Part shown: piece after piece, positions 3,320 through 59,979 of the stretch
Numbering within the stretch: position 1 is the first letter of the stretch
How the letters are laid out: each line of letters opens with the position of its first letter
IMG/VR virus record: IMGVR_UViG_3300024493_000316
Direction: 5' to 3' (one strand)
From: an uncultured virus (IMG/VR IMGVR_UViG_3300024493_000316)
Taxonomy: Duplodnaviria > Heunggongvirae > Uroviricota > Caudoviricetes
DNA: 64,000 bases
Notes under the pieces: model-generated
Told to the model about the DNA's origin: nothing
The model's input: only the letters and a program-made list of their open reading frames with translations
Database searches by the model: none
Translations under genes and position numbers: made by a program

Positions 3320-6300
3320 TTGTCATTTGGGTTTCGCTATAGGGCACATTACACCTCACGCCCGGATGTTCCAAGCCATAGGAAACTATACGCGTGGATA
3401 AAGGGCGCGGTTTCGGTTTATTATATCCACGGGGGGAATATCATTAAAAATTTCGCGAAAATAGCGGTCCTCGCCGCCGCGCTTTGGGCCCCGCGGGTCG
3501 GCGCGCAGAGCGTCTATACCGCCAGCGATTTCATATCCGCGTGGAACGCCGGCTCCGGCTCCATAACCGCGGTCGGCGCGCCCGTCAACGCGGCCGGGGA
3601 CTACGGCATAACATTTCCCAGCGGCCAGAATCCGCTGAACGCGCTCTCTTCCGGCATTTCCATATCGGGCTACGGCGGCGCGCCGTTCGGCACCGCGCTC
3701 ACCCTGAACGGGGCGACGCTCGCCTTCGCGCCCAACTGGAACGACGGCATAAGCGTTTCCTTGTCCGGCCTCTCCATATACGGCGCGTCGAACGGGGCCG
3801 TCTCGCTCATTGGAAACGGAGTGGGCGCCCACAGCCTTTCCATCGACGGAGTCTTCTTCTACGGCAACAACAGCTCCGGAAACGGCGGTGCGGTGAACGT
3901 GCAGTCGCAGGTGCAGAGCACGCAGCCGAGCGACTACATCCTGACCGGGAACAACTTCTCGACCAACGCGGCGGGCTCGGGCGGAGCGGTCTATATGGTT
4001 TCCAACAACGCGCTCTTCAACAATCCTGGAGTGCCGCTGCAGTTCGAGGTGGCGGCGGGCCCCGGCGCCGGATACATAACCTATAACAGGGCCGACGCGG
4101 GCGACGGCGGAGGAATATACTTCATGGGGAACAACGCGGGAGGAGGCGCGTCCGGCAGCCTCTTCACGGCGTCCGGCTATACGTTCTACGCGAACTACGC
4201 GTCCAGCCTGGGCGGAGCCATATACAACGGAGTCCTGAACGGAAACGCGCCCGCCGCGAACGACTTCGTGATAACGGGCTCGACCTTCGCCAACAACCAG
4301 TCCGGGAACGGAGGCGGAGCCGTGGCGACAAGCATAAACGGCGGCAGCACGGACGTCGGCGTCTCGATAGACGGCAAGTTCTATTCCAACTCGGCCGCGA
4401 ACGGAGGCGGCGCCATCTACAACGCGGTCGGCGACCAGTACTCGCCGTACGGGGGCAGCATAACGTTCGACCTCTCCAATCCCGCGAACATATTCAACGG
4501 GAACAAGGCGACCGACGGCGGAGCGATCTACAACTATATAATGCCCGGCCAGTCGAACGTGGTCGTGAACCTGGGCGGACAGTTCACGGGCAACACCGCG
4601 ATAGGCCGCGGCGGAGCGCTCTACAACACCTCGGGCAACAACTATCCCGGAACCTCGGTCGTCAACGTGGCGGAAGGGACGCTGTTCTACGGGAACGGAG
4701 CGGCCTACGGCGGAGCCATATACAACGACGGGAACGGAGTGATCAACTTCAACACCGGAAGCTCGGACATAGTGTTCCTCAACAACTACTCGTCGGGAGC
4801 CGCGAACGGACCGGGAATATACCAGGGCTCCTCCACCGCGGTCATGAACATCGCCGGCACCGGCACCATGGACGTGAACGACGGAATAGCGGGCATAGGA
4901 ACGCTCAACCAGCATGCGGGCACCAACTTCAACCTGACCGGCTCGAGCCAGAGCACGGGCTTCACGGGTATATACAACAACGCCGCGGGCAGCGCGATAA
5001 ACGTGGACGGCCTGATGTTCGGTGGACAGAACAATTTCCATGGCGTGGGCAATATAAACAGCAGCCAGAACAGCTTCTATTTCAACGCGAACATGTTCTC
5101 TAATTCCCAGATGAACTTCACCTCGCTCTCGACCGGCAGGGTCTCCATAGGCCAGGCCGCGAACAGCATGTCGGCCGGCATAAACTTCTTAGGCGACGGC
5201 GCCACCATAGGATTTAATGCAATCTCCGGAGGCAGCGCCTCGTACCTCCTGCAAAACGACATAAGCAACGGGCAGTCGAACGCCATAATCTTCAACAACA
5301 GCGACATAACCTTCGGCGCCGCGTCGTACATGGGCGGCACGGGCTACGATTTCTACAACAACTCCGTGCTGGATTTGGCGAACTCGTCGCCGGCCTACCG
5401 GCAGTATAATTTCGCGAACCTGAGCGCGGATAGTTCCGTGCTGCTTTCGTTCAAGATAGGGAACAACCAGGGCTCGCTCATGTCCGACGCCATAAGCGTG
5501 GCGAACGGCGGAGGCACAATAGGGCTCGGCCTGGTCTATGTCAACGACGCGGACGGGCTTATCACCGGAACGCAGCAGGTCATCTACGGCTCGCCGCTCG
5601 CCTTCGCGAACGGGGAGACGCAGTATGTCGCGACCAGCCTCGGCACCTATTCCATCACCACCGAGAACGACTACTATGTCAACTTCTCGGGATTGGGCGG
5701 CGCGGGCGGAAGCGGCAACACGACGGTCTCGACCGATCCGGGAACCGGCGGCACGACCACGACCACGAACGACCCCGGGGCCGGAAGCACGACCACCACG
5801 ACCACGGATCCGGGCGGCGGCTCGACCACGACGATCACGGGCGGAGGCGGAGGCGACACGACCATCACGACCGGCCCGGACGGAAGCACGACGATCACGG
5901 GCGGCGACGGGGGCTCCGGCGGCTCCACGACCATACCTCCCGGAAGCTCCGGCTCCACGACCGCTGGCGACGGCTCTACCATAGACGTCTCGACCGACCC
6001 TTCGACGGGAAACACGACCACGACGATCACCCAGCCGGGCGGCGGAGGCAGCACGACCATTGTCACGGCCCCCAACGGAAGCACGACTGTCTACAACCCC
6101 GACGGCTCGACGGCTTCGACCACGGTGGGCCCGGGCGGAAACGCGACGGCCAGCACCACCACGACCCTCGCGCTCGACGACGTGAACATGATGGACGCCG
6201 CGGCCGCGGCAGTGTTCGGTACCGCCGCGCCCGCGTCGCGCGCGTTCCAGATAGGCTCGAACGAAGTATACAAGAACGCGTCCAGCCTGCACGACATGGC

Positions 6301-12312: not shown

Positions 12313-12687
12313 TCAAGTGAAAGAGTAGAAGTATCGCCCGTCGCGTTGGACTTTCTCGATCGTGGCTTCCAAGGGCAGCTCGTCCTTGCACTCCTCCAGC
12401 TGCTTCAACAGCACTACGGAGCCGGAGAACGACACATAACGCTCGCCCTCAAACTCATACTGGATCGTGAGGCAGTCGCCGCTCTTGTCGGCGTATTTGC
12501 TCTTTTTGACGCGATAGGCCAAGACGAATATCGGCTTGCCGATAATCTCCTCGATTTTCTTCTTCTTGCCGTCAAGGGTTGGTGCGCCCTTATAGACATC
12601 TCTGAACCGCTTGCGAGGCCTGCCGTCAGAGTTGTCCGGCGGCGGCGGGGGCGAACTTGCGTTCGAGTCTTTTTCGAAGTCCGACAT
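12313..12687 (-). CDS. Small protein overlapping the DGR RT 3' end (candidate non-Avd accessory factor)
   Basis: 124 aa, GGAGG RBS, 62-bp overlap with RT; beta-strand-like pattern, not the helical Avd pattern. Confidence 0.65.
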   Translation of the reverse strand: MSDFEKDSNASSPPPPPDNSDGRPRKRFRDVYKGAPTLDGKKKKIEEIIGKPIFVLAYRVKKSKYADKSGDCLTIQYEFEGERYVSFSGSVVLLKQLEECKDELPLEATIEKVQRDGRYFYSFT

Positions 12688-13705
12688 TTTTACATTCCTC
12701 CATGAGTTCGTCCAGTTTGATTGAAACGGAAAGGTTGCGGGTGTTCGCGGGTTTCAGCCAGCCGTAGGTAGAGCCGATTGACGAGCGAAAGGTGTCAAAA
12801 GAGATTTTGCCCGCCTCATACTGGCGGGGCAGCCTCTTTATGCGGCGTATGACCCGCCGCGCGGTGGATTTGCGGAGCAGGACATAGCTCTTTCCGTTCC
12901 GGCGAAAATGCCGGTAGCCGAGGAAATCCACCCCTTGATACACGGGGAAGACATCGCACTTCGAGAACTTGAGTTTGAGGTGGTCTTGCAGGAACTCCCT
13001 CATGCGCCGCGCCGCCTCGTGCAGCTCGGCCTTGTTGTCCGAAAACAGGCAGAAATCATCACAATAGCGCACATACGCGCTCACTTTCAGCTCGTCCAGC
13101 ACGAAGCGGTCAAGCTCGTTCAGATACAGGTTGCCGAACCATTGGCTCGTGTAGTTGCCGATAGGCACATTCTTACCTCCGGGGAACGAGGACACGATGT
13201 CGCGCATGAGCCACAGCACATCGGGGTCTTTGATTTTCCGCTCGATTATCCGCATGAGAACCTCTTGGTCGATCGAGGGGTAGAACTTCGAGATGTCGCA
13301 CTTCAAGCAGTAGTCGTAGCGCATGACGAGATCCATTGTCCTCGCGCTTCCGGCCTTGCCGCCTTTGCCGACCCTGCAAGCGTAGGAGTGGTCATAGAAC
13401 ATACCCTCCCAGATAGGCGACACGACATTCATAAGCGCGTGCTGGATTATGCGGTCGGGAAAGAACGGCAAAACATAGATGAGCCGTTCTTTCGGCTCAT
13501 AGACCTTTTTCGTGCAGTAGGGAGAAGTCTTGTAGGTCTTGGATATTAGGAGCTGGCGGCAATGCTCCAGCTTGCCCTCTTTGTCGGTTAGGAAGCGTAT
13601 GACATTGTGCTTGCTCTTTTTGCCGAGCATGGCTTTATGAAGAGCAATCTCGAAGTTTTCCTTAGAGATTATCCGCTCCCATAACCGGCCATGTCGTTTC
13701 GCCAT
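12626..13705 (-). CDS. DGR reverse transcriptase
   Basis: YEPKER, DRIIQHA, KCDISKFYPSI, VPIGNYTSQWFGNLYL (DGR SQ motif), YVRYCDDF, GVDFLGY; adjacent TR/VR. Confidence 0.97.
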   Translation of the reverse strand: MAKRHGRLWERIISKENFEIALHKAMLGKKSKHNVIRFLTDKEGKLEHCRQLLISKTYKTSPYCTKKVYEPKERLIYVLPFFPDRIIQHALMNVVSPIWEGMFYDHSYACRVGKGGKAGSARTMDLVMRYDYCLKCDISKFYPSIDQEVLMRIIERKIKDPDVLWLMRDIVSSFPGGKNVPIGNYTSQWFGNLYLNELDRFVLDELKVSAYVRYCDDFCLFSDNKAELHEAARRMREFLQDHLKLKFSKCDVFPVYQGVDFLGYRHFRRNGKSYVLLRKSTARRVIRRIKRLPRQYEAGKISFDTFRSSIGSTYGWLKPANTRNLSVSIKLDELMEECKNVGLRKRLERKFAPAAAGQL

Positions 13706-13842
13706 TTTTTGTTGGGGTTCAAACTTTCGGTTGCCCTACTAGCTCAAACCCCACTCCTTTTCGTGTTCTGCCTCCGCCTTGCGGCTTCGACATGGATTTG
13801 CGTTCAGCCGTGGAGTTAGGAAAGCTCTTTATTCTCCTCGTA
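13706..13842 (-). ncRNA. DGR spacer RNA (3' part of the TR transcript)
   Basis: Non-coding TR-RT interval with stems ggggtttgagct/agtttgaacccc around AGTAG..GAA and a gcc-GCAA-ggc hairpin. Confidence 0.6.
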
Positions 13843-13955
13843 TCGCCCCGCGCGTGCCGATATTCGTATTCACGTGGACACGCAAATTGTTAGCATTGAA
13901 GCAGCGAGAGCCGCAATTCGACCCATTGTCCCAATTGCCTCCTGCCAGCAACGCA
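13843..13955 (-). repeat. DGR template repeat (TR), 113 bp
   Basis: Aligns to VR with all mismatches at TR adenines; reads ALLAGGNWDNGSNCGSRCFNANNLRVHVNTNIGTRGA with 8 AAY codons. Confidence 0.97.
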
Positions 13956-14059
13956 GGAACGGCGCGGCGCGGGATTAAACGCATACCCCGTTTGCTCTCG
14001 CAAACTTTATGGATTCTACCCTATTTCAAGGACTTTTTCCACAAAAAAATATAACCGAT

Positions 14060-14113
14060 TCGCGCTTCGCGCGAGGGCTATCGCCCCACCCCAGCCCTCC
14101 CCAAAGGGGAGGG
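14060..14113 (-). promoter_or_regulatory. Two GC-rich DNA hairpins downstream of VR (DGR homing cruciform candidates)
   Basis: Coding strand: ccctcccc-ttt-ggggaggg (14095-14113) and tcgcgc-GAA-gcgcga (14060-14074). Confidence 0.75.
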
Positions 14114-14144
14114 AGCGTGTTGCGCCCATGCGCCCCTGCGAGCA

Positions 14145-15443
14145 TTACGGTAAGCGCACTCCACGGCTCGCCCCGCGCGCGCCGACAACCGTATACACGC
14201 GGACACGCAAAAAGTAAGCACAGAAGCANNCACGCAAAACGTAAGCATAGAAGCAGCGAGAGCCGCAAAACGACCCATCGCCCCAAGAGCCCCCCGCCAG
14301 CAACGCATAGGTTTCGCCATATAACTGGCCTTTGCCTCCAAGCTGGCTTTTCTGATGGTGGTTGTTAGTGTCCCCAATGCTTAGAGGGTCATACTCGGCA
14401 GCCGCACCTGCTTGTCCAGACCAGTTGCGTATTGTGGAGTTTCCGCTCGCACAAGAGGATTTGACCCATGTCCACCATACTCCGGCAGGGTCTTCTATGA
14501 AGAACTTGCTTATCATGCGGTTGCCATTCGTAGCTGTATGCCCGCCCGCCGTATTTGGGCTTGCGTTGCCTTGGATATTGACCTCCTGCGGGCAACCTTC
14601 CATTGCGGCGGAGAACTGGTCGCTGTCGAGCAGCTCAAGGCCGGCATTTGACAGATAATCTTGGCACTCGCCATATTGCTTTGACACTTGAACCGTATTC
14701 CCGAATTTTGACACATACTTATTGCCTTCAAGCGAGGAGAAGTATATCCCTACGAAGGTGTCGAGGAAATCAACAAAGGCCATACCGGGAGTGCCGAAGC
14801 CAGCCGCAGGGAAAAACTTGCGCGTTTGTATTGAGTTCGGGATTATATCCCCATAGTTGAACCCCGCCGCAGGGTGCGCCACGGATCCAACGACGCTTCC
14901 CGTGCTGTTCTGCATTTGCGTATTGCTGACGCTCTGGCAAAGGGTATGCACCATTCCTATGCAATACGAGTCCGCAGTCGTGTAGCCGGTTGGCGCGACC
15001 GCGTTGACATCGGACACCAGCGCAAACGAAGTTCCAGTCCACACCACATAGATGTAGATGTCCTTGCCTTGCGGCCAAGCCGTAGTGCCTACATAGATCG
15101 CCTGCGCGTCTATCTCTGTATCTTGATTGACATTAAAACGCTTGTGATCCGCGTCCGCAAACGAGATTGCCTTGGAAATAGGGTTGATGATGAGCTTGCG
15201 CCGGTTGGCCGAGCCTGCCACGGGCTTGATATAGTCCGGCACGCTCGCCATGAGGTCGCGCATGAGCCACGGAAGTGCGTTTGCAGCGTCTTCCCTCATC
15301 ATAGGATAGCCGCCGTCTTTCAATCCGTCATGCAAGACAATGGTCTTTTTATCCGTGTCAACGGTCGTTTCCCAAGGCTGGTCGCCGTGGAAGCTCTCGT
15401 GTTCGAGGGTTGTGCCGTATCGCCTTTGGACTGATTCTGCCAT
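14145..15443 (-). CDS. DGR target: major tropism determinant-like receptor-binding protein (Mtd N-terminal domain, C-terminal CLec-fold)
   Basis: N-terminal VDTDKKTIVLHDGLKDGGYP; C-terminal ED..G..W.W and LLAGGSW...CGSR; VR at the 3' end. Confidence 0.9.
   Translation of the reverse strand: MAESVQRRYGTTLEHESFHGDQPWETTVDTDKKTIVLHDGLKDGGYPMMREDAANALPWLMRDLMASVPDYIKPVAGSANRRKLIINPISKAISFADADHKRFNVNQDTEIDAQAIYVGTTAWPQGKDIYIYVVWTGTSFALVSDVNAVAPTGYTTADSYCIGMVHTLCQSVSNTQMQNSTGSVVGSVAHPAAGFNYGDIIPNSIQTRKFFPAAGFGTPGMAFVDFLDTFVGIYFSSLEGNKYVSKFGNTVQVSKQYGECQDYLSNAGLELLDSDQFSAAMEGCPQEVNIQGNASPNTAGGHTATNGNRMISKFFIEDPAGVWWTWVKSSCASGNSTIRNWSGQAGAAAEYDPLSIGDTNNHHQKSQLGGKGQLYGETYALLAGGSWGDGSFCGSRCFYAYVLRXCFCAYFLRVRVYTVVGARGASRGVRLP
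14168..14307 (-). repeat. DGR variable repeat (VR), with NN gap and a 25-bp allele duplication
   Basis: 113-bp TR homology plus 27 nt (NN at 14229-14230 and a second copy at 14231-14255). Confidence 0.95.
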
Positions 15444-41754: not shown

Positions 41755-43134
41755 TCAAGGAGTTTCTTCGCTTTCTTCCAAGAATTCTTTTATCTCGACA
41801 TTCCCCAGCTTTTCTGCGGCTTTACGGGCATCGCCTTTCAAGAAAACAAGCACATTCTGGTGAACTTTGCAAACTTTCCGGCTGGAGCGGAACATATTAC
41901 CGACCCGAAGCGCGGAAGTGCCGATCGCCGTTTCGAGGACTATTTCGTTATAGTAGGCGAACCCGGCGTCCATAAACGCCTTTATCGTGTCGCCGAGGAA
42001 ATTATAGTAGTTGCCGCCCTTGGCGCGCACCTCGCCGACAACCCACACCGCAAAGGTGTCATCTTTCATCTTTGCGTAGGTCTTGGCGATTATGGAGCGG
42101 TAGATCTCCAAGAACCGGCCATATTCCATATTCGACAGGTCGTCGGGGTCATCGCTATACACCTCTAAGTCCGCATAGGGCGGGCAGGAAAGCACCATGT
42201 CATACGCCGCGTCCTCAAGGGTGTCAAGGATCTCGTTGCTATCGCCGCAGAGCCAGTTCGGTATGTTGTCCGGCATAATCTTGGCGGCGTTCTCGAAATT
42301 AGCCTCTATCTGCTCCTTGCGGAGGTCTATGCCGGTGTATCGGCGGCCAAGATGGTGCGCTACTATGCCGCGAACAGAGCCGCCGGCGAAAGGATCAAGT
42401 ATGTGGTATCCGTCTTTGGCAAACCACGAGTAGGCCACCTCGCATAAAACTGGATCGAACAGGGAGGTTTGTGGGATAATCCCCGACTTGTCGAGGTATT
42501 TTTCCTCAAACTCCTTGTTATCGACCTCTCTGCCGAGCCGCGCCTCAAGCGCGTTCTTCTGCTCGTAGTAGTCCGGTATGGAGCCGGACAGAGAGGTTAT
42601 CAACAGGGCGTCGTCGCGGCCTTTCTCGCTCTCGATCCCCAAATCTATCCACGCCCGCTTGCGATCCTGCCATTCGCCGGATTTGGCATTGAGGACGGAG
42701 AAAGGAGGAATGAGATACTTCTCGGAGAGAACCCCAGCTTTATGGGGTTCGGAAAGGCCGTCCTCAATGTCAATTCCCATGTCTTGGAGTTCGGAAACAT
42801 CAAAATCCTCATGCAAGAGGTCTAGATCGAACTCCGAGCTATCGGACGCCGCGTTATCGGCCACCGCCAACTTGCGGCGCTTCTCGTCGGCGGTGGCAAG
42901 GTCTGTGCGCTTGACTACCACAAGCTCCGAACCGTCAGTTTCAACGATACGGGTGGGGATTCCGAGCTTTTTTGCCTGCTCGAAAACTCCATTACCGCAA
43001 ACGACACCGTTTTCCTTGTCGATAACTATCGACCGACCGGCGCCAAGCTCCTGCAGGCTCTTGTTGATGAGCGCCTTATTGCAGTCATCGTGCTTGCGAT
43101 AATTCCTGCTGTCTAGGCGAATGTTATCTTCCAT
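41755..43134 (-). CDS. ParB-like N-terminal domain fused to amino-DNA methyltransferase
   Basis: N.RKH...SIVID....CGNG, ADN; DPFAGGS motif I and SCPPY motif IV. Confidence 0.8.
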   Translation of the reverse strand: MEDNIRLDSRNYRKHDDCNKALINKSLQELGAGRSIVIDKENGVVCGNGVFEQAKKLGIPTRIVETDGSELVVVKRTDLATADEKRRKLAVADNAASDSSEFDLDLLHEDFDVSELQDMGIDIEDGLSEPHKAGVLSEKYLIPPFSVLNAKSGEWQDRKRAWIDLGIESEKGRDDALLITSLSGSIPDYYEQKNALEARLGREVDNKEFEEKYLDKSGIIPQTSLFDPVLCEVAYSWFAKDGYHILDPFAGGSVRGIVAHHLGRRYTGIDLRKEQIEANFENAAKIMPDNIPNWLCGDSNEILDTLEDAAYDMVLSCPPYADLEVYSDDPDDLSNMEYGRFLEIYRSIIAKTYAKMKDDTFAVWVVGEVRAKGGNYYNFLGDTIKAFMDAGFAYYNEIVLETAIGTSALRVGNMFRSSRKVCKVHQNVLVFLKGDARKAAEKLGNVEIKEFLEESEETP

Positions 43135-45079: not shown

Positions 45080-45494
45080 TTTTGATATACGCCTTTCTTT
45101 CGAGCCAAAGGATATATTCGCGGGCTTTCTTGATTATAGGCGCGTCCAACTTTTCGAGCCAAAGGATATATTCGCGGGCTTTCTTGATTATAGGCGCGTC
45201 CAACTTTTCGAGCCATGCGAAGATTTCCTTGCGGTTTTCATTCCTTTCGATCTTCTCCTGCGTAGCTTTCTCCCACCTTTTTTCAGCCATATTCCAATTT
45301 TCTATTGCCTTTTCTGGCGAATCCCCGAACATCACGCCGGCGCAACGCAGTCCAGGCCGCCGGCTACCCTCAACACAGCCCACAGAAAACCGCATAAACC
45401 CGTCGCCGCCGTGGTCATGCACTACCAATCCCCCGCCGCACCTGGCGCAGGTGCCGGTCTTTACGATGGTGGCTGTCGTTGTAGTCTTTGTCAT
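45072..45494 (-). CDS. Zn-finger (Lar-like) protein with 18-aa tandem duplication
   Basis: CxxC...C....C...AIENWN; WLEKLDAPIIKKAREYIL twice. Confidence 0.55.
   Translation of the reverse strand: MTKTTTTATIVKTGTCARCGGGLVVHDHGGDGFMRFSVGCVEGSRRPGLRCAGVMFGDSPEKAIENWNMAEKRWEKATQEKIERNENRKEIFAWLEKLDAPIIKKAREYILWLEKLDAPIIKKAREYILWLERKAYIKNE
45098..45215. repeat. Perfect 54-bp tandem repeat (2.2 copies)
   Basis: 45098-45151 = 45152-45205, partial copy 45206-45215. Confidence 0.95.
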
Positions 45495-46621
45495 AGCATT
45501 CTCCCTTGCATTCCTTTAAGCCGCCTGCGGGCGATTTCTGCGTATTCGGGATTGAGTTCTATCAGCATGGCATTTCGGCCATTCTGATTGGCAACGAGCG
45601 CCGTGGTGCCGGCGCCGCCAAATGGATCGAGAATTACCCCCCCCCACGGACACCCCGCCAAAATGCACGGCTTGACCAGCTTCGGCGGGAATGTGGCAAA
45701 GTGCGCTTCCCTATAGCCAACTGTTGAAATATCCCACACATCTCGTTTCCGGCGTTTCATAAGGGGGTTAGGTTTGTTGCCGTGGGTTTCGTTTCCGGCC
45801 TGCGCGGAATTGTCAAAGCTCTGCCTGCCCGTGTATGCCCCGCCGCCGCGAAAGGTTTTCCGCAATCCTTTATTCGGACGCGCCGTGCCTTTACTCCCGC
45901 GCGGGGCTTCTGGATCGCCGTTGACGCAATCCTCCATGATTGCTTTGTAGTCAAAATAGTATTTCGGTTGCTTGGCGAGCAGAAAAATATACTCGTGCGC
46001 CCTAACAAGCCTATCTTCAACAGATTCCGGCATAGGGTTAGGTTTTTTCCAAACTATATCGTTTCGCAACCACCAGCCGTCGGCCTGCAGAGCGAGGGCA
46101 AGGCGCCACGGCATACCCACGAGGTCTTTTGGCTTCAACCCCTCGACCACAGTCGAATATGGCTTGTCGCGGAATGTGCGGTCATCGTTCTTTATGTCGG
46201 CGGCGGCGCGGCCATTCGGCGCAGTCGCGTAGCAGTCGCCATAGTTCAGCCAAAAGGTGCCGGTGGGCTTTAGAACCCGCCGGACTTCTCGGAATACTTC
46301 CAGCAAAACGTCGATATGCTCCGAGGGAGTAGGCTCCATGCCTATCTGTGCGTCAACTCGGCGCGCGCCGCACTTCCGGCATTTGGAGCAGTCATCGCCG
46401 CGCAACGGACTGGCACACCTAGCATTCCGCCGTTTTTCGTCCTTGAAGTCATAGGCTATCGTATGCTCGCAGGACGGATCGCCGCCCTCCCACCTCGCCG
46501 TGCCATAGTCGCGCAGCCCCCAATACGGCGGGCTGGTTATCACGCAATCGACAGAATCCGCAGGCATTTTGCGGAGTTCCGTGAGAGCGTCGCCTACTAT
46601 TATGCGGGTTTCGGGTATCAT
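45491..46621 (-). CDS. DNA N4-cytosine/N6-adenine methyltransferase (beta class)
   Basis: TSPPY, VLKPTG, W.KPNPMPES, HFATFP, DPFGGAGTT. Confidence 0.92.
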   Translation of the reverse strand: MIPETRIIVGDALTELRKMPADSVDCVITSPPYWGLRDYGTARWEGGDPSCEHTIAYDFKDEKRRNARCASPLRGDDCSKCRKCGARRVDAQIGMEPTPSEHIDVLLEVFREVRRVLKPTGTFWLNYGDCYATAPNGRAAADIKNDDRTFRDKPYSTVVEGLKPKDLVGMPWRLALALQADGWWLRNDIVWKKPNPMPESVEDRLVRAHEYIFLLAKQPKYYFDYKAIMEDCVNGDPEAPRGSKGTARPNKGLRKTFRGGGAYTGRQSFDNSAQAGNETHGNKPNPLMKRRKRDVWDISTVGYREAHFATFPPKLVKPCILAGCPWGGVILDPFGGAGTTALVANQNGRNAMLIELNPEYAEIARRRLKGMQGRML

Positions 46622-49786: not shown

Positions 49787-50112
49787 TTTGCCCCTCCCGA
49801 CTTTTTAGCTTCCTCTGCGGCTTCCTTTACATAGGCTTGCCAAGCTATCTCTGCGACCCTGCCGACTTTTTCGATTTCCTTTGTGAGCCGAGCAAGCCCC
49901 TTGTCGTAATGCTCTTTTACAGGGGGCTGGCCGTGGGTGTAAGGGCTGGCCGCGATTGAAAATGAGAACTTGGTGAGCCATTGCATAATTTGCTCTCCGT
50001 TCAGTTTTGCCTCTACCGCGTAGGCAACCGCCGCATTGCATAGGGCAATCCCCATGAAATACCCTTTGTCTTTTTCGGACTCCGGTTGGCCGAATATTGC
50101 GAATCCTTGCAT
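49783..50112 (-). CDS. Hypothetical protein
   Basis: AGGAG RBS, coupled. Confidence 0.5.
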   Translation of the reverse strand: MQGFAIFGQPESEKDKGYFMGIALCNAAVAYAVEAKLNGEQIMQWLTKFSFSIAASPYTHGQPPVKEHYDKGLARLTKEIEKVGRVAEIAWQAYVKEAAEEAKKSGGAK

Positions 50113-50114
50113 GG

Positions 50115-50876
50115 CTATTCTCCTATTCTCATCGGCATTACGATCGCCAGATCCCGACTGCCCTCATGGTAGATGTGGAGAGGGTTCTCGTTCTTCAGCT
50201 CCTCCTGCCGCACGCAAATGACTTTCTGATCGTTAAAAAAGTCAAGGACGACCTCCATGAACTTCGCGTCGTATTTGCCTTTGTAGTTGAATTTGCCATG
50301 CGCGCGGAAGGCCTTTGCGCTTTTGTCTTGGCTGGGAATGAGGTCGCCGTTGAAAAGCGAGGTAAAGGTTAGGTAGTAGTCCTCCGCGCTTTTTCCACGC
50401 CAAATGACCGTCTGGAAGTCCTGTAGCTTTTTCTCGCTCTCGGCTTCAGCGTATCCCATAATGGTCTTATTCATTCTGGCCAGCGCGTGCCAGTCCTCGG
50501 CAAAGACGACCTCCAGCTTGGTTTCCGGCTTTTCGTCTGGCTTTATTTGGATAGACGGGTGTATGACTTTCTCGCAGTCGGGGAAGACTCCGAACTTGTC
50601 CTCATCGGTTCCGAGAAACTCTATCGAGCTACGATTTACGTCGTAGAACCCTGGCTTGAGCGGCAACTCTTTCCGCAATAAAACGCACCCGTTCGTGGCA
50701 TATAGCATTCCATCTCTGGCGTAGGCATTATGCAAAAAGAACCTTTTGCCGCCATCTTTGCGGGATAGCCTTAGCAACTCCTCGAATGCCCTGGCTTCGC
50801 CTTTTTGGAGGCAATGCGCTCCTGCCCGCGCAGTTTCGAGCAGATACTCGCTCGGAATTATCACTACATCTTTCAT
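50115..50876 (-). CDS. Divergent beta-sliding-clamp-like protein
   Basis: YATNG, FPD..KVI, C-terminal AIVMPMR. Confidence 0.5.
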   Translation of the reverse strand: MKDVVIIPSEYLLETARAGAHCLQKGEARAFEELLRLSRKDGGKRFFLHNAYARDGMLYATNGCVLLRKELPLKPGFYDVNRSSIEFLGTDEDKFGVFPDCEKVIHPSIQIKPDEKPETKLEVVFAEDWHALARMNKTIMGYAEAESEKKLQDFQTVIWRGKSAEDYYLTFTSLFNGDLIPSQDKSAKAFRAHGKFNYKGKYDAKFMEVVLDFFNDQKVICVRQEELKNENPLHIYHEGSRDLAIVMPMRIGE

Positions 50877-51406
50877 TTGTTGGCTCCTTTCTTGTTTGTG
50901 ATTTTCGGCGCGGCCTCCGGCTTGAAGGCCTCCTCGTTAAAGGTCAGCACGCCGTTCTCATCGGCGCTGAAAACAAAGTCGTTCAAGTCGGCGTTCATGT
51001 CTAAGAGCTTGTTTAGCCGTTCTGGGGCGAGAACCGAGTATTGCCAGCCGGTTTCCCTGTTCCAGACCCTTGCCGAACCGCCGAACTTGTATTTGTTGCA
51101 AAAGGCTTCAAACCACTGATAAAATCCGGCAAAGAATTTGCCAGCCAGCTTCGCGGCTTTAGCGTTGCGGCGGACAGGCTCGCGCAGTCCGTTGACAGCT
51201 TCTTGAGCGAGGGGGAAACGCCCCCACCGGAACACGCCAGACAACCCAGAAAACAGCCAAAGCCTAAGGCTCCAAAAGAAGTGAAGCGTCGGGGCAGAAA
51301 GCCAAGAGAGGTTGCCCCTGCCACAGAGGAAACCGCCCCCGCCAAGCGGCGCGGTCGGCCACCCAAGAACGCCGACACAAGACTCGATAAAAAAGGGTGT
51401 ATTCAT
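50873..51406 (-). CDS. Gene with apparently inverted internal segment (AT-hook protein in the flipped state)
   Basis: GAGGAG RBS and ATGA coupling; residues ~8-96 look antisense while the + strand encodes KRRGRKPR and KRRGRPPK. Confidence 0.6.
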   Translation of the reverse strand: MNTPFFIESCVGVLGWPTAPLGGGGFLCGRGNLSWLSAPTLHFFWSLRLWLFSGLSGVFRWGRFPLAQEAVNGLREPVRRNAKAAKLAGKFFAGFYQWFEAFCNKYKFGGSARVWNRETGWQYSVLAPERLNKLLDMNADLNDFVFSADENGVLTFNEEAFKPEAAPKITNKKGANK

Positions 51407-51500
51407 TTCTTCTCCTCTGGTTTTTGGTTAGCTGGATTTTTAAGGTCGCCGTCCAGCGCGACGTCGTTTATTATTTTTCTAGGTTCAACCTTAAAACTTG

Positions 51501-52118
51501 TCATGCACGTTCTCCCTCCAAGCCCCAGCGCCGCAAGTGAAACGCTAAGGTGCTACGGCAGATTTTGTATTTTTTTGCGATGTGCGTCTTTGACCTGCCT
51601 GCGGCAAGCGATTTACAGATTCCGTCCTTATGAGGGTCGATTTTATAGAAAGCACTCTTTGCCCCTACAGGCCGGCCAAGTATCACGCCCTCGGCTTTCT
51701 TGCGCGCGAGTGCTTCCTTTGTCCGTTCGCTTATCATCTTGCGCTCGATCTCGGCGGCGAGGCCGAAAGCAAAGGCAAGCACCTTTGACTGGATATTGTC
51801 GCCCAGCTCGTAGCCGTCTTTGTGGGTATAGACCTTGACACCGGACTTCATACAATGCTCCAAAATCCGCATTACCATAAACAGGGTGCGGCCAAGGCGC
51901 GAGATTTCGCCGGCAATAAGGACATCGCCCTCGCGCAGGGTTTTAAGCAGCTTTCCGAGGTGGCGTTTTTCCGGCTCCACGCCGCCGGACACATTATCGT
52001 CCGCAATATACTGGTCTATGACTAGCCCGCGCCGCTCGGCCTCGCGGACAACGCCGAGCTTCTGGTTCTCGACATCTTGGCCGCCGGTTGATACTCGCAA
52101 ATAGCCATAGACCGACAT
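51501..52118 (-). CDS. Serine recombinase (resolvase/invertase, Mpi-like)
   Basis: YGYLRVST..Q...Q, SG, EISRLGR, AEIER.MISERTKEAL, LGRP, C-terminal HTH. Confidence 0.92.
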   Translation of the reverse strand: MSVYGYLRVSTGGQDVENQKLGVVREAERRGLVIDQYIADDNVSGGVEPEKRHLGKLLKTLREGDVLIAGEISRLGRTLFMVMRILEHCMKSGVKVYTHKDGYELGDNIQSKVLAFAFGLAAEIERKMISERTKEALARKKAEGVILGRPVGAKSAFYKIDPHKDGICKSLAAGRSKTHIAKKYKICRSTLAFHLRRWGLEGERA

Positions 52119-52350
52119 TAGACCGCTCCCCCTTTTTTGGCCTCTAACCGCCTCTTTGATTTCGATTCTGGTATAAAGCCACAACGCCTACACTCTATCC
52201 AGCGAACATCATCACCGAAAAAGCCCTCGCCAGTTAGACGTTCCCACTTATGCCCGAATGTCTTGCAAATACCACGCCGGAACTCCCGAATGAGGAAATC
52301 CTCAAGCGTTGCGACTTCGTAGGCGAGCCAGCTTATACCGTTTGACAACC

Positions 52351-53151
52351 TCATTCCGCGCCCTCCCACTTGACATTGTATAAGTCCGCCTTTTTCTCTT
52401 CCGGCAGAGGCTCTATATCCGGCGCGGCCTCACGCAGATCGCGCTTGATATAGAATTTTTTGGAACGCCCGCGCAGGATAGCAACGGCGTGGCTAAGAAA
52501 ATCCGTCCAGTCGATAGACTTGTCGAGGTCTTGAAAATGATTGACCTTGCCTACCTTATAGACATCAATGTAGTCTAAAGTTTGCCGCATAAGGTTCAAG
52601 GACTGCTCCGGCTTTATGACTGGCTCGAACGAAGCGAAAGTCTGTATTCCGGCTTCATGTAGAGCCTTCAACGCGGCGAGGCGGTCGCTGACGGGCGCAG
52701 CTCCCGGCTCCCATTCGAGGGAGTCCTCGTCATTGTCGAAAGTCAGCGTTGCCCCGACCTGTATGGCATTGCCGAACTTTTGGAACAAGGGCAAGTGGTG
52801 CAGACAGGCAGTCCCACCTTTTGTGAGAATGGCGCAAGGAACTTGGAATTGCAGGAACAGGTTCAGAATGTCCGTTATCGCCATGTTGTTGTCCGCCGCG
52901 TCGCAATAGACATCGCCGATGAACGATAGAAGCACCTGTTGCTTTATCTGGGGGCTACGGCGTAGCTCGGCGGCCAGCTTTTCGACTATGTTCTCGCGCG
53001 GCATAGGCTTGCCGGTGTATTCTGCGAGGGTTTTCCTAATCGCCGCCGCCGCATAGCAATACTTGCACCCATGCGAGCATTGCATATAGACGTTCAAGGC
53101 AAGCGGGCTATATTCCCGCGCACGACCTTTGGGTTCGTAAATCAAACTCAT
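52351..53151 (-). CDS. Radical SAM protein (SPL-like family)
   Basis: CSHGCKYCYA, ILTK, WEPGA....RL.AL..L...GI. Confidence 0.8.
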   Translation of the reverse strand: MSLIYEPKGRAREYSPLALNVYMQCSHGCKYCYAAAAIRKTLAEYTGKPMPRENIVEKLAAELRRSPQIKQQVLLSFIGDVYCDAADNNMAITDILNLFLQFQVPCAILTKGGTACLHHLPLFQKFGNAIQVGATLTFDNDEDSLEWEPGAAPVSDRLAALKALHEAGIQTFASFEPVIKPEQSLNLMRQTLDYIDVYKVGKVNHFQDLDKSIDWTDFLSHAVAILRGRSKKFYIKRDLREAAPDIEPLPEEKKADLYNVKWEGAE

Positions 53152-55733: not shown

Positions 55734-57353
55734 CTATGCGACCATTCGCATTTCCTCTCTCTTGAAATAGTTTGCCTTGACAAGCACCTCGGCCATAGGC
55801 GGGCAAACCGAATTGCCGCACAATCTGACCTGCGCCGTCTTTGTGAGCGGTTTCCCGTCCGCCCCTTTGTCGAAGTGGTAGTGCGGCGGGAATCCTTGGC
55901 AGGCGAACAGCTCTGCCGGCGTAAGCATACGGAGGCCGATGTCAACGATGACATACGGCTCGCCGTCAACATGAACCGTGACGAGGCCGAAACGATCCTT
56001 GCCGGTTATCGTATGCAAAGGCTCGTCCACCTTGAGGCCGTCTTTTTCGTTTCCGAAATACTTCACGAGGAAGCTATACACCGCCGCGAAATGCGTTCCC
56101 TGCGCGCTTATGGTCTGGAGCGGATCGTCGGGCATTTGCCCCAAGTTCGTGCCGCGTAGCTTTGTTATATGCGCGGCGACGAGCGCATTATGGTCTATGG
56201 CCGTGACGGTCGGGCATGGGTTCCGCGCGTCCGCGCCTACCACCCCGCCGTAATACTTCGCCAAGAATGCCGACACGAGCGCGGCGTGCTTTCCGCCGGC
56301 CAGGATAGTCCAAAGAGGTCGGTTTGGATCGGCGGCGCGCGGCTGGGTGCTATCCCCATCGCCATAACCCATTTGCGCGATAATCGGCGAAATCAGCATG
56401 GGATAACCCTTGCTTGTTATGGTATTCAGAGGTGTTTTGAGTTCCTGCCCACGACTGTCGGTGTAGCGCCATGCCAGAAATGATGGCGATACAAGCGCGT
56501 GGCCGTGCTTTGCCGTCATTGTTGGCATAGGCTCGTCCGTGGACTGGCCTCGGAAACCCTCGCCGGAGTGGTTGACCTGCACGATGAACGGGCGCGGGTT
56601 GTCGATGACAAACTTCTTCATACCCATTGCGATCCGGCGCATGGTGTTCTCGGAAAGCGGCTTCTTGCGCCCAAATATCGACGGGCATGGGAGCGAGAAG
56701 TCTATGCACTCCGCCGCCGTGCGGTAGGGGAGCAAGTCTTTTCCGTGCGTCTTTGTCGGCCAGACTATGGCCTCGCCGTCGCACCGCGCAATGAGGAACA
56801 GGCGCTTGCGGATCGTCGGCGCCCCGTAGTCGCAGGCGCGCAGCTCGCGCCACTCCACGGCGTAGCCCATTTTTTCCAGCTCGCCCACCCATGCGCGGAA
56901 AGTTTCGCCCTTGTAGGCTGGGTGCGGCTTGTTGTCCTTGTCGAGCCTGCCCCAAGTCTGGAACTCCTCGACATTCTCAAGGAAAATCACGCGCGGGCGC
57001 ACGAGCCTCGCCCATTTGACGACAACCCACGCCAGCGACCGGATTTTCTTTTCGACCGGCTTGCCGCCCTTGGCCTTGGAAAAGTGCTTGCAATCGGGCG
57101 ACGCCCAGAGCAGGCCTACCGGCTTGCCCTCGCAGACCGCGAGCGGGTCAACCTCGAACACGTCCGAGCAGAAGTGCCGCGTCTGCGGGTGGTTGGCTTG
57201 GTGTAGGCTGATGGCCTCTGGATCGTGGTTTATGGCAATGTCAACATACCGCTTCAACGCCATCTCGATCCCTGTGGACGCCCCGCCGCCTCCGGCGAAT
57301 AAGTCAACCACAAGCTCGCGGTGTATGGGGAGGATATATTGATTGCCCAGCAT
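55734..57353 (-). CDS. C5 cytosine DNA methyltransferase
   Basis: DLFAGGGG, SPDC, LENV, R.RLF, GNSV. Confidence 0.93.
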   Translation of the reverse strand: MLGNQYILPIHRELVVDLFAGGGGASTGIEMALKRYVDIAINHDPEAISLHQANHPQTRHFCSDVFEVDPLAVCEGKPVGLLWASPDCKHFSKAKGGKPVEKKIRSLAWVVVKWARLVRPRVIFLENVEEFQTWGRLDKDNKPHPAYKGETFRAWVGELEKMGYAVEWRELRACDYGAPTIRKRLFLIARCDGEAIVWPTKTHGKDLLPYRTAAECIDFSLPCPSIFGRKKPLSENTMRRIAMGMKKFVIDNPRPFIVQVNHSGEGFRGQSTDEPMPTMTAKHGHALVSPSFLAWRYTDSRGQELKTPLNTITSKGYPMLISPIIAQMGYGDGDSTQPRAADPNRPLWTILAGGKHAALVSAFLAKYYGGVVGADARNPCPTVTAIDHNALVAAHITKLRGTNLGQMPDDPLQTISAQGTHFAAVYSFLVKYFGNEKDGLKVDEPLHTITGKDRFGLVTVHVDGEPYVIVDIGLRMLTPAELFACQGFPPHYHFDKGADGKPLTKTAQVRLCGNSVCPPMAEVLVKANYFKREEMRMVA

Positions 57354-57591: not shown

Positions 57592-57828
57592 TCAGCCTCC
57601 GTTGTTTTCGTGGATTATTAGTTTGACGCCAAGCTGTTCCGCGCTATCTAGAATCTCATGGAACCAGCCGTTAGGAATGATGTAAGGCTTGCCGGATTCG
57701 CGCTCTTTGCGAATCCAAGTGCAGATGGTGGTCGGCGGAATGCCAAGAAGACGCCCCATCTTTCGCTGGTTGCCTGCCGCTAGGATTTCTAGGGTTTCTC
57801 CAGCATAAAGGTATTTAGAATTTCTCAT
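57592..57828 (-). CDS. Cro-like HTH regulator
   Basis: GNQRKMGRLLGIPPTTICTW; divergent from cI. Confidence 0.7.
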   Translation of the reverse strand: MRNSKYLYAGETLEILAAGNQRKMGRLLGIPPTTICTWIRKERESGKPYIIPNGWFHEILDSAEQLGVKLIIHENNGG

Positions 57829-57849
57829 TCTCCAAACTCCACGAATCGT

Positions 57850-57938
57850 ATAATACTACATTCGTGCATAATAGTCAAGCAAAAAATGCACGAATTTCGT
57901 TTATTGACTTTTGGATACAAAAAATATACGATGTTCGT
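57850..57938. promoter_or_regulatory. Divergent PR/PRM promoters with operators
   Basis: - strand TTGACT(57878)-17-TATTAT; + strand TTGACT(57904)-17-TACGAT; ACGA-N3-TCGT at 57890 and 57928. Confidence 0.75.
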
Positions 57939-57958
57939 ATATTTTAAGGGTAAACAGA

Positions 57959-58402
57959 ATGAATAGATGGGATTGGTTAGAAAAAAGGTTGGCTGAATTA
58001 GGCTATAAAAAGAACTCTTTTGCCGCCGCGATTGGCTGGGAAAGTCAGCGCGTGTATGAGCTTTTTGGTGGTTCTACAAAGGCTATCCCTATCCGATATG
58101 TTCCGGCGGTCGTCAAGGTGTTAAATCTGGAATGGGAAAGCTTCCTAAGGTTCAATACTGGCAAGACTGACGAGCCGCCTAAGTTTCGCTTTGACGGAGC
58201 CGACACGGAAAAAGACTTATACACCCACTGCTTGCTTGAGATAGATCGGGCGGCAGAAAAGCATAAAGCGGATTTTACGCTAGAGGGGAAAATCAAACTA
58301 GCGTTTCTCGTGTTTGATAAGGTGCGCGTGCTTTCAGAGGAGGAGAGGGATAGCAATATCATCAACCTCGCCGATGTCTTGGTGGAATCCAAGGCAGCGT
58401 AA
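57959..58402 (+). CDS. CI-like repressor (HTH, no recognisable S24 domain)
   Basis: N-terminal XRE HTH; divergent from cro. Confidence 0.7.
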   Translation: MNRWDWLEKRLAELGYKKNSFAAAIGWESQRVYELFGGSTKAIPIRYVPAVVKVLNLEWESFLRFNTGKTDEPPKFRFDGADTEKDLYTHCLLEIDRAAEKHKADFTLEGKIKLAFLVFDKVRVLSEEERDSNIINLADVLVESKAA

Positions 58403-58703: not shown

Positions 58704-59285
58704 CTAATTCTTTTTGGTAAAGAAACTGCCCTCAATGGCAGGATTCGTCATGCCGGCGGGGATTATGAATGTGCCGCCCGTGGCCTTTATGTCGCCGCCC
58801 TTGCTATACCAGAGGTCGAGATAGCGTTGGACGTTATTGAACTCGCCGTTCTTGGCGAGCTTCAGATCGAGCCGCATATCGTCCGGCGCCTTGACTACCA
58901 GCTTTGCCACGCCGTAGTCCGTTAGAGCCTCGCCATGCTCGCCGGCGTATCGACCGAAAGCCTCCCCGGTGAAAGTGCCGGAAAAGGTCATACTGGCCGC
59001 TTCCGCCTGGCTCTTGTATTCCAGCCCATAGGTAAGCACATCACGCATGGCTCCGAAGCGGGCTGCAGCTCTAGTCGTGTCGAAGTTCCGGTCGGTATAA
59101 TCCTCGGTTATGGGCGAGAATATTTGGCCGACCTGCCACACCGACAAGTCATTATAGTTCAAGCGGACATCTCCGCCGGTCGCGGCCAAGGTTGTCTTAT
59201 ATTCAGCAAGAGGATCTCCGGTCGGCGGGTTTTTGCCGCCGATACTGCAGGCGGTTAAAAGCAACAAAAGCAAGGTTTTCCTCAT
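58704..59285 (-). CDS. Lipoprotein (cargo)
   Basis: MRKTLLLLLLTAC lipobox; beta-rich C-terminus. Confidence 0.7.
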   Translation of the reverse strand: MRKTLLLLLLTACSIGGKNPPTGDPLAEYKTTLAATGGDVRLNYNDLSVWQVGQIFSPITEDYTDRNFDTTRAAARFGAMRDVLTYGLEYKSQAEAASMTFSGTFTGEAFGRYAGEHGEALTDYGVAKLVVKAPDDMRLDLKLAKNGEFNNVQRYLDLWYSKGGDIKATGGTFIIPAGMTNPAIEGSFFTKKN

Positions 59286-59725
59286 TGTTGCGCTCCTTTC
59301 TTATCTGTTTTCATTGAAGCCTTGTCCTGCTCTGTCAGCCAGACAGACCTTTCGTTCCATACCTGCGCCGGAGCTTGGCCGAGCTGCCGGATAGTCTTTC
59401 TTGCCCCCATGGTATTGACATACGAATAAGTGCCTTTTTGCACCCAGCAGTTACCAGAAGTGGCGGAAAACATCATACCGTCGTATAGGTTGGAGTCTTT
59501 GCCTTTAATATAAACAGGCTCGTAGTCATACACGGACGAAAAGGTATGCGCGCCTGTGGCGTAGTTCGTCTGACCGACAGTCATATTCGCAATAACGCCG
59601 TCATCGAGGACTTGCACCACCTTCAAGCCGCCGTCGTATATGCAGTCGGGATTGGCTTTGTGTGTCCTGTCGTAGTGGCTGCAAGCGCCCGCGAGCAATA
59701 ACGATAGGATAAAAAACTTTTTCAT
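59282..59725 (-). CDS. Lipoprotein (cargo)
   Basis: MKKFFILSLLLAGAC lipobox; GTYSY.N..G..KTI. Confidence 0.7.
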   Translation of the reverse strand: MKKFFILSLLLAGACSHYDRTHKANPDCIYDGGLKVVQVLDDGVIANMTVGQTNYATGAHTFSSVYDYEPVYIKGKDSNLYDGMMFSATSGNCWVQKGTYSYVNTMGARKTIRQLGQAPAQVWNERSVWLTEQDKASMKTDKKGAQQ

Positions 59726-59898
59726 ACGGATAAGATAGCATACGATATTCGTTTATGTCAATCAAAAATAAACGGCGCGCGTTGCAGATTTTGCACCACC
59801 TGTTTTCCTAATAATTTCCCCGCTTTCCTATAAAACCTGCCTCGACACGGGGAAATAAGTGCGTAAAATCAATTACATTATGCGAAAACAAAAAATAT

Positions 59899-59949
59899 AC
59901 GAAATTCGTGTATTTTCTTATTGACTTTTATGCACGAATCTAGTATTAT
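59899..59949 (+). promoter_or_regulatory. PL-like promoter with operators
   Basis: TTGACT(59921)-17-TATTAT(59944), near-identical to PR; ACGAAATTCGT at 59899. Confidence 0.75.
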
Positions 59950-59979
59950 AGAAAGCGTTGATAAACCTTGGAGGGCAAA

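Follow-up and report, generated by a model that had tools for sequence, protein, structure and literature searches.

Which strand encodes the middle of a small phage gene, and how did that middle come to read as it does? The gene occupies positions 50873-51406 of a 64,000-nucleotide (64-kb) stretch of DNA from the uncultured virus IMGVR_UViG_3300024493_000316 (the window), and a serine recombinase gene lies next to it. An initial annotation, made from the sequence alone, held that a coding piece has been inverted within this gene. Our analysis indicates that the piece is very likely an inverted stretch of coding sequence, as supported by the strand skew, the silent differences between two AT-hook-like motifs and the rarity of the motif. 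The explanation that fits best, to which we give about an even chance, is a precise in-frame 270-bp inversion in an ORFan gene, whose likeliest maker is an off-target act of the adjacent invertase, and which in this population is most likely a rare event that has become effectively fixed. The event is of a kind already known, intragenic inversion. The gene and the elements of the piece are as follows.

50873-51406, minus strand: the 177-codon ORFan gene in its present form (open reading frame (ORF) list, translation)
51119-51388, plus strand: the probable inverted piece, 270 bp, or 266 bp between the AT pairs (translation, AT skew, restored frame)
51284-51307, plus strand: AT-hook-like motif 1, KRRGRKPR (translation; not reported by Pfam)
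51344-51367, plus strand: AT-hook-like motif 2, KRRGRPPK (Pfam AT_hook PF02178, 15.7 bits, below the cut-off of 17.4)

In its present layout, the gene consists of six N-terminal codons, 90 recoded codons and 81 C-terminal codons. Its ATG (51404-51406) is preceded by a GAGGAG-type ribosome-binding site, and its stop overlaps the ATG of the next gene in an ATGA (50873-50876); both the site and the coupling are located as the initial annotation had them. The C-terminal 81 codons score +50.1 bits on the gene's strand in a sense-versus-antisense codon score, and this part has no start codon of its own.

The plus strand of 51119-51388 likewise forms 90 codons without a stop. It reads as a predicted amphipathic-looking helix, a Pro/Lys/Glu-rich linker, and then KRRGRKPR and KRRGRPPK, which the initial annotation had placed on this strand at 51284 and 51344, and which we find there. 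Inverting 51119-51388 by script yields a frame of 177 codons that has no stop and is in frame on both sides, in accordance with the earlier claim that an inversion between the AT dinucleotides gives one open frame. Since AT is self-complementary, the 270-bp and 266-bp flips lead to the same DNA. A 90-codon frame open in antisense is at chance level, since 364 of 915 codon-aligned antisense segments of this length (~40%) are free of stops, and joining in frame after a flip is a one-in-three event by chance. Taken where it now stands, the plus frame of the piece has no usable start or stop nearby, and its sole start is a TTG at 51041. The hook-bearing plus frame 51041-51838 is open for 265 codons, running across the intergenic gap and antisense to the C-terminal half of the recombinase gene, and its extra parts look like junk (Cys/Arg/Ser-rich).

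The comparison of the two hooks indicates which strand was under selection. Over their first five codons they differ at five bases (CGT/CGG, CGG/CGC, GGC/GGT, AGA/CGG). All of these differences are silent on the plus strand, indicating selection on the plus frame. Read on the minus strand, the same stretches give SWLSAPTL versus LGWPTAPL. The pattern RGR[KP]P occurs only at the two hooks among 271,782 six-frame residues, taken from the window and nine other phage loci. In addition, the AT skew is reversed, at -0.439 for the gene's strand of the piece, and 0 of 377 coding-strand segments of 270 nt are as low (mean +0.122, minimum -0.310). On the plus strand the skew is +0.439, which is within the sense range, with 1.3% of the segments as high.

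These results bear directly on the reading that no inversion took place, according to which the gene simply encodes its present sequence, including a middle rich in Gly, Leu, Phe and Trp, and the AT-hook-like reading of the other strand is a by-product. The gene is open and coupled and has a good ribosome-binding site, codon usage is neutral between the strands, and no homologue contradicts such a reading. Tryptophan does not contradict it either. The initial annotation had taken the W-rich residues as a sign of antisense; at least five Trp per 90 residues are found in 13 of 613 sense segments and in 0 of 613 antisense segments, so that tryptophan richness is not an antisense mark in this phage and does occur in its real proteins. 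However, a gene that is as it reads would have to accommodate five hook differences that are synonymous only in the plus frame, a hook motif absent from all other frames scanned, an AT skew beyond all 377 coding segments, and a codon score of +50.1 bits for the C-terminal part against -2.0 for the middle. We regard it as improbable that the gene is uninverted.

If the piece is inverted, the ancestral protein would have had about 177 residues, comprising six N-terminal residues, the helix, a basic Pro/Lys/Glu-rich linker with the two AT-hook-like motifs, and an 81-residue C-terminal domain. The stretch 51119-51388 would then have been turned round exactly and in frame, and residues 7-96 would now be read from antisense. 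Both hooks and the helix would be lost from the present protein, with nothing recognisable in their place; in accordance, neither Pfam, PHROG nor AlphaFold2 detects a recognisable feature in the recoded middle. Function has probably been lost in the present orientation. The frame would have been kept open, so that translation would still reach the ATGA overlap that couples the next gene, and this preserved coupling may be the reason that the inversion survived.

An AT-hook has an Arg-Gly-Arg-Pro core flanked by basic residues, and AT-hook proteins of the HMGA type are minor-groove binders. KRRGRPPK has this core, whereas KRRGRKPR has Gly-Arg-Lys-Pro instead. The restored protein resembles AT-hook proteins in having two basic motifs in a linker that is Pro/Lys-rich and predicted to be disordered. 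It differs from them in that one motif only is picked up by Pfam, at a score below the cut-off, and the gene now encodes neither.

The junctions show how the piece is joined to the rest of the gene.

51118-51124, plus strand: left junction, GATAAAA around the AT at 51119-51120 (sequence)
51386-51392, plus strand: right junction, GATAAAA around the AT at 51387-51388 (sequence; direct repeat of the left)

The earlier report of GATAAAA at both ends holds as to its presence, at 51118 and 51386 on the plus strand, but the two copies are direct repeats and not inverted ones. An identical 7-mer is found 268 nt downstream at just 7 of 63,700 positions, a figure that overstates the rarity because the junction was partly placed by that repeat; the true odds of an in-register identity of 7 nt are perhaps one in a few hundred. 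GATAAAA itself is common in the window, with 21 copies versus 9.8 expected. In the restored arrangement, each breakpoint lies in its own short palindrome centred on AT, one with a GATC core and the other T4-AT-A4, and the 7-nt identity of the present junctions is equivalent to an AT-centred palindrome at each restored breakpoint. The T4-AT-A4 sequence is the palindromic junction that the flip had been said to create. No other exact copy of this restored 10-bp palindrome occurs in the window.

Inverted repeats are missing at the junctions, as the initial annotation had noted for long ones. Within 25 nt on either side, the best ungapped inverted match is 5 nt, which 86% of 3,000 random pairs reach. 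With gaps allowed, the best inverted match has a score of 15 within 30 nt on either side, reached by 94% of random pairs, and of 25 within 60 nt on either side, reached by 18%. A repeat scan of 50700-51800 gives no inverted pair at both junctions, and in the 64-kb window no inverted repeats group into a family around a common core. A 13-nt inverted match (51121-51133 and 51428-51440) does not qualify as a site, since matches of this quality arise by chance and a flip there would put a stop before the hook frame.

The seven-base direct repeats lie exactly at both ends of the piece, as would be expected if a foreign fragment of 261 bp had landed antisense in the gene and GATAAAA were a 7-bp target-site duplication. 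However, removing the insert together with one repeat takes away 268 bp; this length is not divisible by 3, and the ATG would be left out of frame with the C-terminal part and its +50.1 bits. The piece also lacks terminal inverted repeats, no second copy of it occurs in the window, and the collections searched contain no relative of the plus-strand protein. Such an insertion is very improbable.

Could the inverted orientation have arisen in the laboratory or in the computer? The only public run that contains DNA of the window (X1) is a termite-gut metagenome and is probably the source of the window. In Logan's separate assembly of this run, 50300-52200 lies within a single contig of 7,205 nt at a word depth of 50.3. 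The contig has 0 differences from the window and no indels, joints or loose ends, and it crosses both junctions in the orientation of the window. Both assemblies rest on the same reads, and the comparison is one of contigs, which drop rare variants.

Inverted chimeras are typical of whole-genome amplification. An artefact of assembly or of sample preparation, for instance a locally dominant amplification chimera, would be compatible with a single run that is probably the window's source and with a second assembly that is not independent of the first at the level of reads. Against it, two assemblers follow the same path at ~50x with no branch, loose end or difference, and no inverted repeat lies at the junctions that could mislead an assembler. 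Moreover, two exactly reciprocal, in-frame junctions would not be expected from single template switches. The initial annotation had allowed for a chimeric assembly; with both junctions crossed at ~50x, an artefact fits worse and is quite improbable. Reads that cross the junctions dictate the orientation, which disfavours an assembly chimera, and the inversion is probably real.

The candidate for the agent of the inversion lies close by.

51501-52118, minus strand: small serine recombinase of 205 residues, Mpi master-invertase family (Pfam, PHROG, NCBIfam, alignment)

The gene ends 112 nt from the right junction, which agrees with the earlier estimate of ~110 bp. It lies upstream of 50873-51406 and in the same direction, and is coupled by TAATG to a preceding 83-codon ORF. 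The protein matches Pfam Resolvase PF00239 (1.2e-31, 110.1 bits) and phrog_125 (DNA invertase, 2.1e-40). Its best family is NCBIfam NF009949, the master DNA invertase Mpi family, with 245.3 bits and an E-value of 4.5e-73; this score is lower than the equivalog cut-off of 272, so that the protein is a close relative and not a certified equivalog. The catalytic Ser and Arg align with those of gamma-delta resolvase (YLRVST versus YARVST and SRLGR versus DRLGR), and the best match among solved structures is Tn3/gamma-delta resolvase (2e-13). At the C-terminus, HTH_28 scores 22.3 bits, below its cut-off of 25, and the alignment to the resolvase DNA-binding domain reaches residue 192. Judging from these alignments, the gene looks intact and of the invertase kind. 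It is the only serine recombinase gene among the 29 genes scanned.

Breaking and rejoining at two AT dinucleotides, reciprocally and with a self-complementary overlap of 2 bp, would be the chemistry of a serine recombinase. In the mechanism that we propose, the Mpi-family invertase 112 nt away would have acted once, off target, at pseudo-sites. Palindromes are what dimeric recombinases would bind, and a self-complementary overlap would let the ends rejoin in either alignment. The exchange is precise at AT and an apparently intact invertase gene lies 112 nt away; therefore, an off-target act of this invertase is the likeliest maker. The cut was thus presumably made by the adjacent enzyme, and another break-and-rejoin route is also conceivable.

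Site I of Tn3 and gamma-delta is broken at the central AT of an A/T-rich palindrome. One restored junction (T4-AT-A4) resembles this site. Unlike Tn3 res, the locus has no res-like group of three dimer sites. Its other restored junction lacks A/T-richness, and the half-sites do not match one another. On site I, activated mutants of Tn3 resolvase give resolution and inversion at ~1:1 early in the reaction, according to the part of PMC2602789 available to us. The AT overlap thus probably does not fix whether inversion or resolution results.

The locus shares with Hin/hix of Salmonella, Gin/gix of Mu and Cin/cix of P1 a small serine recombinase beside the candidate segment and a precise, conservative exchange. 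It differs from them in having no pair of like sites and in its target, a putative DNA-binding protein. The known phage invertase systems, Gin and Cin, swap the ends of tail fibres. As described in the available part of PMC3798978, Hin acts at two sites of 26 bp, to each of which a dimer binds, and uses an enhancer bound by Fis as well.

The Mpi-inverted regions are small, and the sites of Mpi are inverted repeats with a shared core; the promoter regions flipped by Mpi are ~0.2 kb, and the segment of 266 bp is in that range. The neighbouring recombinase matches NF009949 far better than any other family. Unlike Mpi, it scores below the equivalog cut-off, and the 64-kb window has no repeat family with a common core; any repeat-flanked substrate of the enzyme in this phage would lie in the other ~86 kb of the source contig. 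A putative 10-nt Mpi core has 5 matches in the window at up to one mismatch, versus 12.2 expected, and none of them is near the gene. In the portion of PMC5903667 that was accessible, Mpi of Bacteroides fragilis is described as inverting at least thirteen regions scattered through the genome.

Nine related phage recombinases, with 51-73% identity, lie in unrelated contexts, and no shared site motif was found in inverted repeats near them. At one of these loci (L009), an inverted pair just after the conserved part of the recombinase gene was considered as a site and rejected, as it falls in coding sequence. The same locus encodes, at 3602-3994, a helix-turn-helix-like protein of 130 residues with a basic, GRPR-containing tail that resembles an AT-hook, just upstream of the recombinase with 51% identity. 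Such DNA-binding proteins may accompany recombinases of this kind, going by L009.

The closest precedents for a recoded gene are the intragenic invertons of Bacteroides thetaiotaomicron and other bacteria (Chanin et al., preprint; PMC10028968, of which a part was available). There, as presumably here, a short segment wholly within a gene is turned round, and since no stop interrupts the frame, the gene is recoded and not truncated; a site-specific recombinase is the expected agent, and a gene for one is present here. In contrast, the invertons in the available part of PMC10028968 are bounded by inverted repeats, with 11 positions in thiC, and are seen in both orientations per population. Our piece has no inverted repeats and one orientation seen, and its host is a phage.

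This comparison raises the question of whether the gene is a programmed, reversible recoding switch, as the initial annotation suggested, in which the invertase flips the 266 bp between an AT-hook form and a recoded form and the latter dominates the sample. Several observations would fit a switch: the invertase gene is 112 nt away on the same operon strand, both orientations are free of stops over 177 codons each, the plus frame is undecayed, the exchange is apparently precise at AT, the in-register 7-nt identity of the junctions is rare (7 of 63,700), and intragenic recoding invertons are known in Bacteroides (PMC10028968, in the part available). However, no inverted repeats lie at or near the junctions, unlike in the invertons of the same source, and the assembly at ~50x shows a single orientation, free of joints and branches. 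Being free of stops both ways is expected by chance (364 of 915), the recoded form has no recognisable feature, and no common site motif occurs elsewhere in the window or beside the nine related recombinases. With no homologues either, the proposed switch is unsupported and we consider it unlikely. The alternative of a one-off event, which the initial annotation held in reserve, fits better, given the lack of inverted repeats and the single orientation assembled.

With no inverted repeats and one orientation seen, the piece is not a canonical inverton. Taken together, these two findings lead us to view the inversion as most probably a rare event that is now effectively fixed in the population sampled. 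A still less likely possibility than a switch in general is repeat-free reversible flipping by the Mpi-family invertase at two unlike AT palindromes, toggling an AT-hook protein, perhaps the enzyme's architectural helper, between binding and recoded forms.

Searches for homologues cover both orientations. A phmmer search of 1.84 billion representatives with the whole present protein returns only the protein itself, and an index search with the C-terminal part returns only the protein itself among three candidates. For the plus-strand piece, 1,627 candidates of lengths 145-464 include none at E <= 0.01, and seven candidates of lengths 49-158 include no homologue. The ESM Atlas gives a best value of 0.82 for the plus-strand piece and nothing for the C-terminal part, both below the meaningful level. 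A blastn search of phage records with 50100-52200 gives no match. In viral contigs, eight pattern matches to the C-terminal part and three to the replication protein include no relative, and the 253-codon neighbour (50115-50876) has no pattern match. Thirteen viral contigs were reached through the recombinase (nine loci) or the radical S-adenosylmethionine (SAM) neighbour (four), and in none of them does the gene, or any of its other neighbours, have a relative. Genome contigs give nothing for the 253-codon neighbour or for the C-terminal part. Metagenome contigs gave four loci, of which the two inspected (L010 and L013) are alpha/beta-hydrolases that share LAPERLNK and were rejected as spurious. 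AlphaFold2 models made without an alignment are too poor to use, as the mean predicted local distance difference test score is 43.6 for the present protein as a whole and 58.6 for its C-terminal part. As no homologue was found, we infer from this one sequence that the plus reading is the ancestral arrangement.

The following points weigh against the inversion or against its proposed origin. Codon usage does not favour the plus strand, as the piece scores only +2.0 bits for it. True-gene segments of 90 codons have a mean of 43.9 bits (standard deviation 14.3, minimum 4.9, n=313), and none scores as low as the piece in either direction; the piece is compositionally odd in whichever direction it is read. 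No homologue was found in either orientation among the 1.84 billion representatives or in the 5.8-billion-protein index. The undecayed plus frame fits a recent event, and equally fits a reversible one that is maintained, and a minority orientation could escape contig data, since contigs drop rare variants. Beyond the AT, the two restored sites are unlike each other, which is odd for one dimer-binding enzyme. We list here also that a random event adjoining the sole recombinase would be a coincidence of roughly a few per cent.

What the inversion means depends on how it arose. A one-off event would be an ordinary structural mutation in an ORFan gene. Even so, the locus is a worked example of how a flipped coding piece can be recognised from strand skew and from the pattern of silent sites in the absence of any homologue. 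If the invertase made the inversion, PhaseFinder, PhaVa and DeepInverton, which start from inverted repeats, would systematically miss pseudo-sites with a 2-bp overlap, and a phage Mpi-family enzyme that rearranges its own genome, off target or on purpose, would widen the supposed roles of such enzymes. Were the repeat-free reversible flipping true, the gene would be a viral intragenic inverton lacking inverted repeats, which no finder that relies on repeats could see.

Two weak signals at the left junction and the coupled gene downstream complete the description of the locus.

51096-51125, plus strand: promoter-like site with a TTGCCA-type -35 box, an 18-nt spacer, TG and TAAAAT (9/12 consensus; weak)
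51126-51144, minus strand: hairpin of eight pairs followed by ATTTTAT (terminator-like in the present orientation only; weak)
50115-50876, minus strand: 253-codon gene of unknown function, downstream, coupled through the ATGA (sequence and ORF list)

The extended -10 box of the promoter-like site is made by the left junction, which also creates the hairpin, and the site points antisense to the gene and to the recombinase gene. Such sites are near chance in the window, with two found versus 0.8 expected in shuffles, and so are the terminator-like sites, with five found versus 2.9 expected. For the Bacteroidetes-type -7 promoter motif, 22 copies versus 25.5 expected show no enrichment.

The genes around 50873-51406 form a co-directional run on the minus strand and are early genes. 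The run includes a radical SAM protein (52351-53151), followed by the 83-codon ORF and the recombinase gene. A gap of 94 nt separates the recombinase gene from 50873-51406, within whose stop the 253-codon gene then starts. The product of the 253-codon gene matches no Pfam family at E up to 0.1, and its sole PHROG match is negligible (E 0.096).

The window is part of a large phage. It has genes for a terminase large subunit, tail and head-decoration proteins and several DNA methyltransferases; it also has genes for a replication initiator, a RecE-like nuclease and a reverse transcriptase. The source contig is 149,693 bp long according to the protein index. Three DNA methyltransferase genes lie at 41755-43134, 45491-46621 and 55734-57353, and one of them is fused to a ParB-like nuclease domain. 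An ORF of 1,917 codons at 3320-9073 is on the plus strand, opposite to most genes of the window, and has no PHROG match at E up to 1e-5.

Palindromes of the form ACGA-n3-TCGT at 57838-57945 and 59740-59961 overlap sigma-70-like TTGACT and TATAAT boxes. These mirrored, operator-bearing promoter regions flank a 2-kb block that has a repressor-like helix-turn-helix pair (57592-57828, minus strand; 57911-58402, plus strand) as well as two small genes whose products carry lipoprotein-type signal peptides (58704-59285 and 59282-59725). The palindromes, which are the only striking repeats of the window, look like operators of an immunity or moron region and not like recombination sites.

A diversity-generating retroelement lies at 12626-15443, with its reverse transcriptase at 12626-13705 (phrog_1423, 2e-112). 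The template repeat is at ~13879-13955 and the variable repeat at ~14231-14307, at the 3' end of the tail-protein gene 14145-15443. In the aligned core, all differences between the two repeats fall on adenines of the template, and the variable repeat has two N bases (14229-14230) at its edge.

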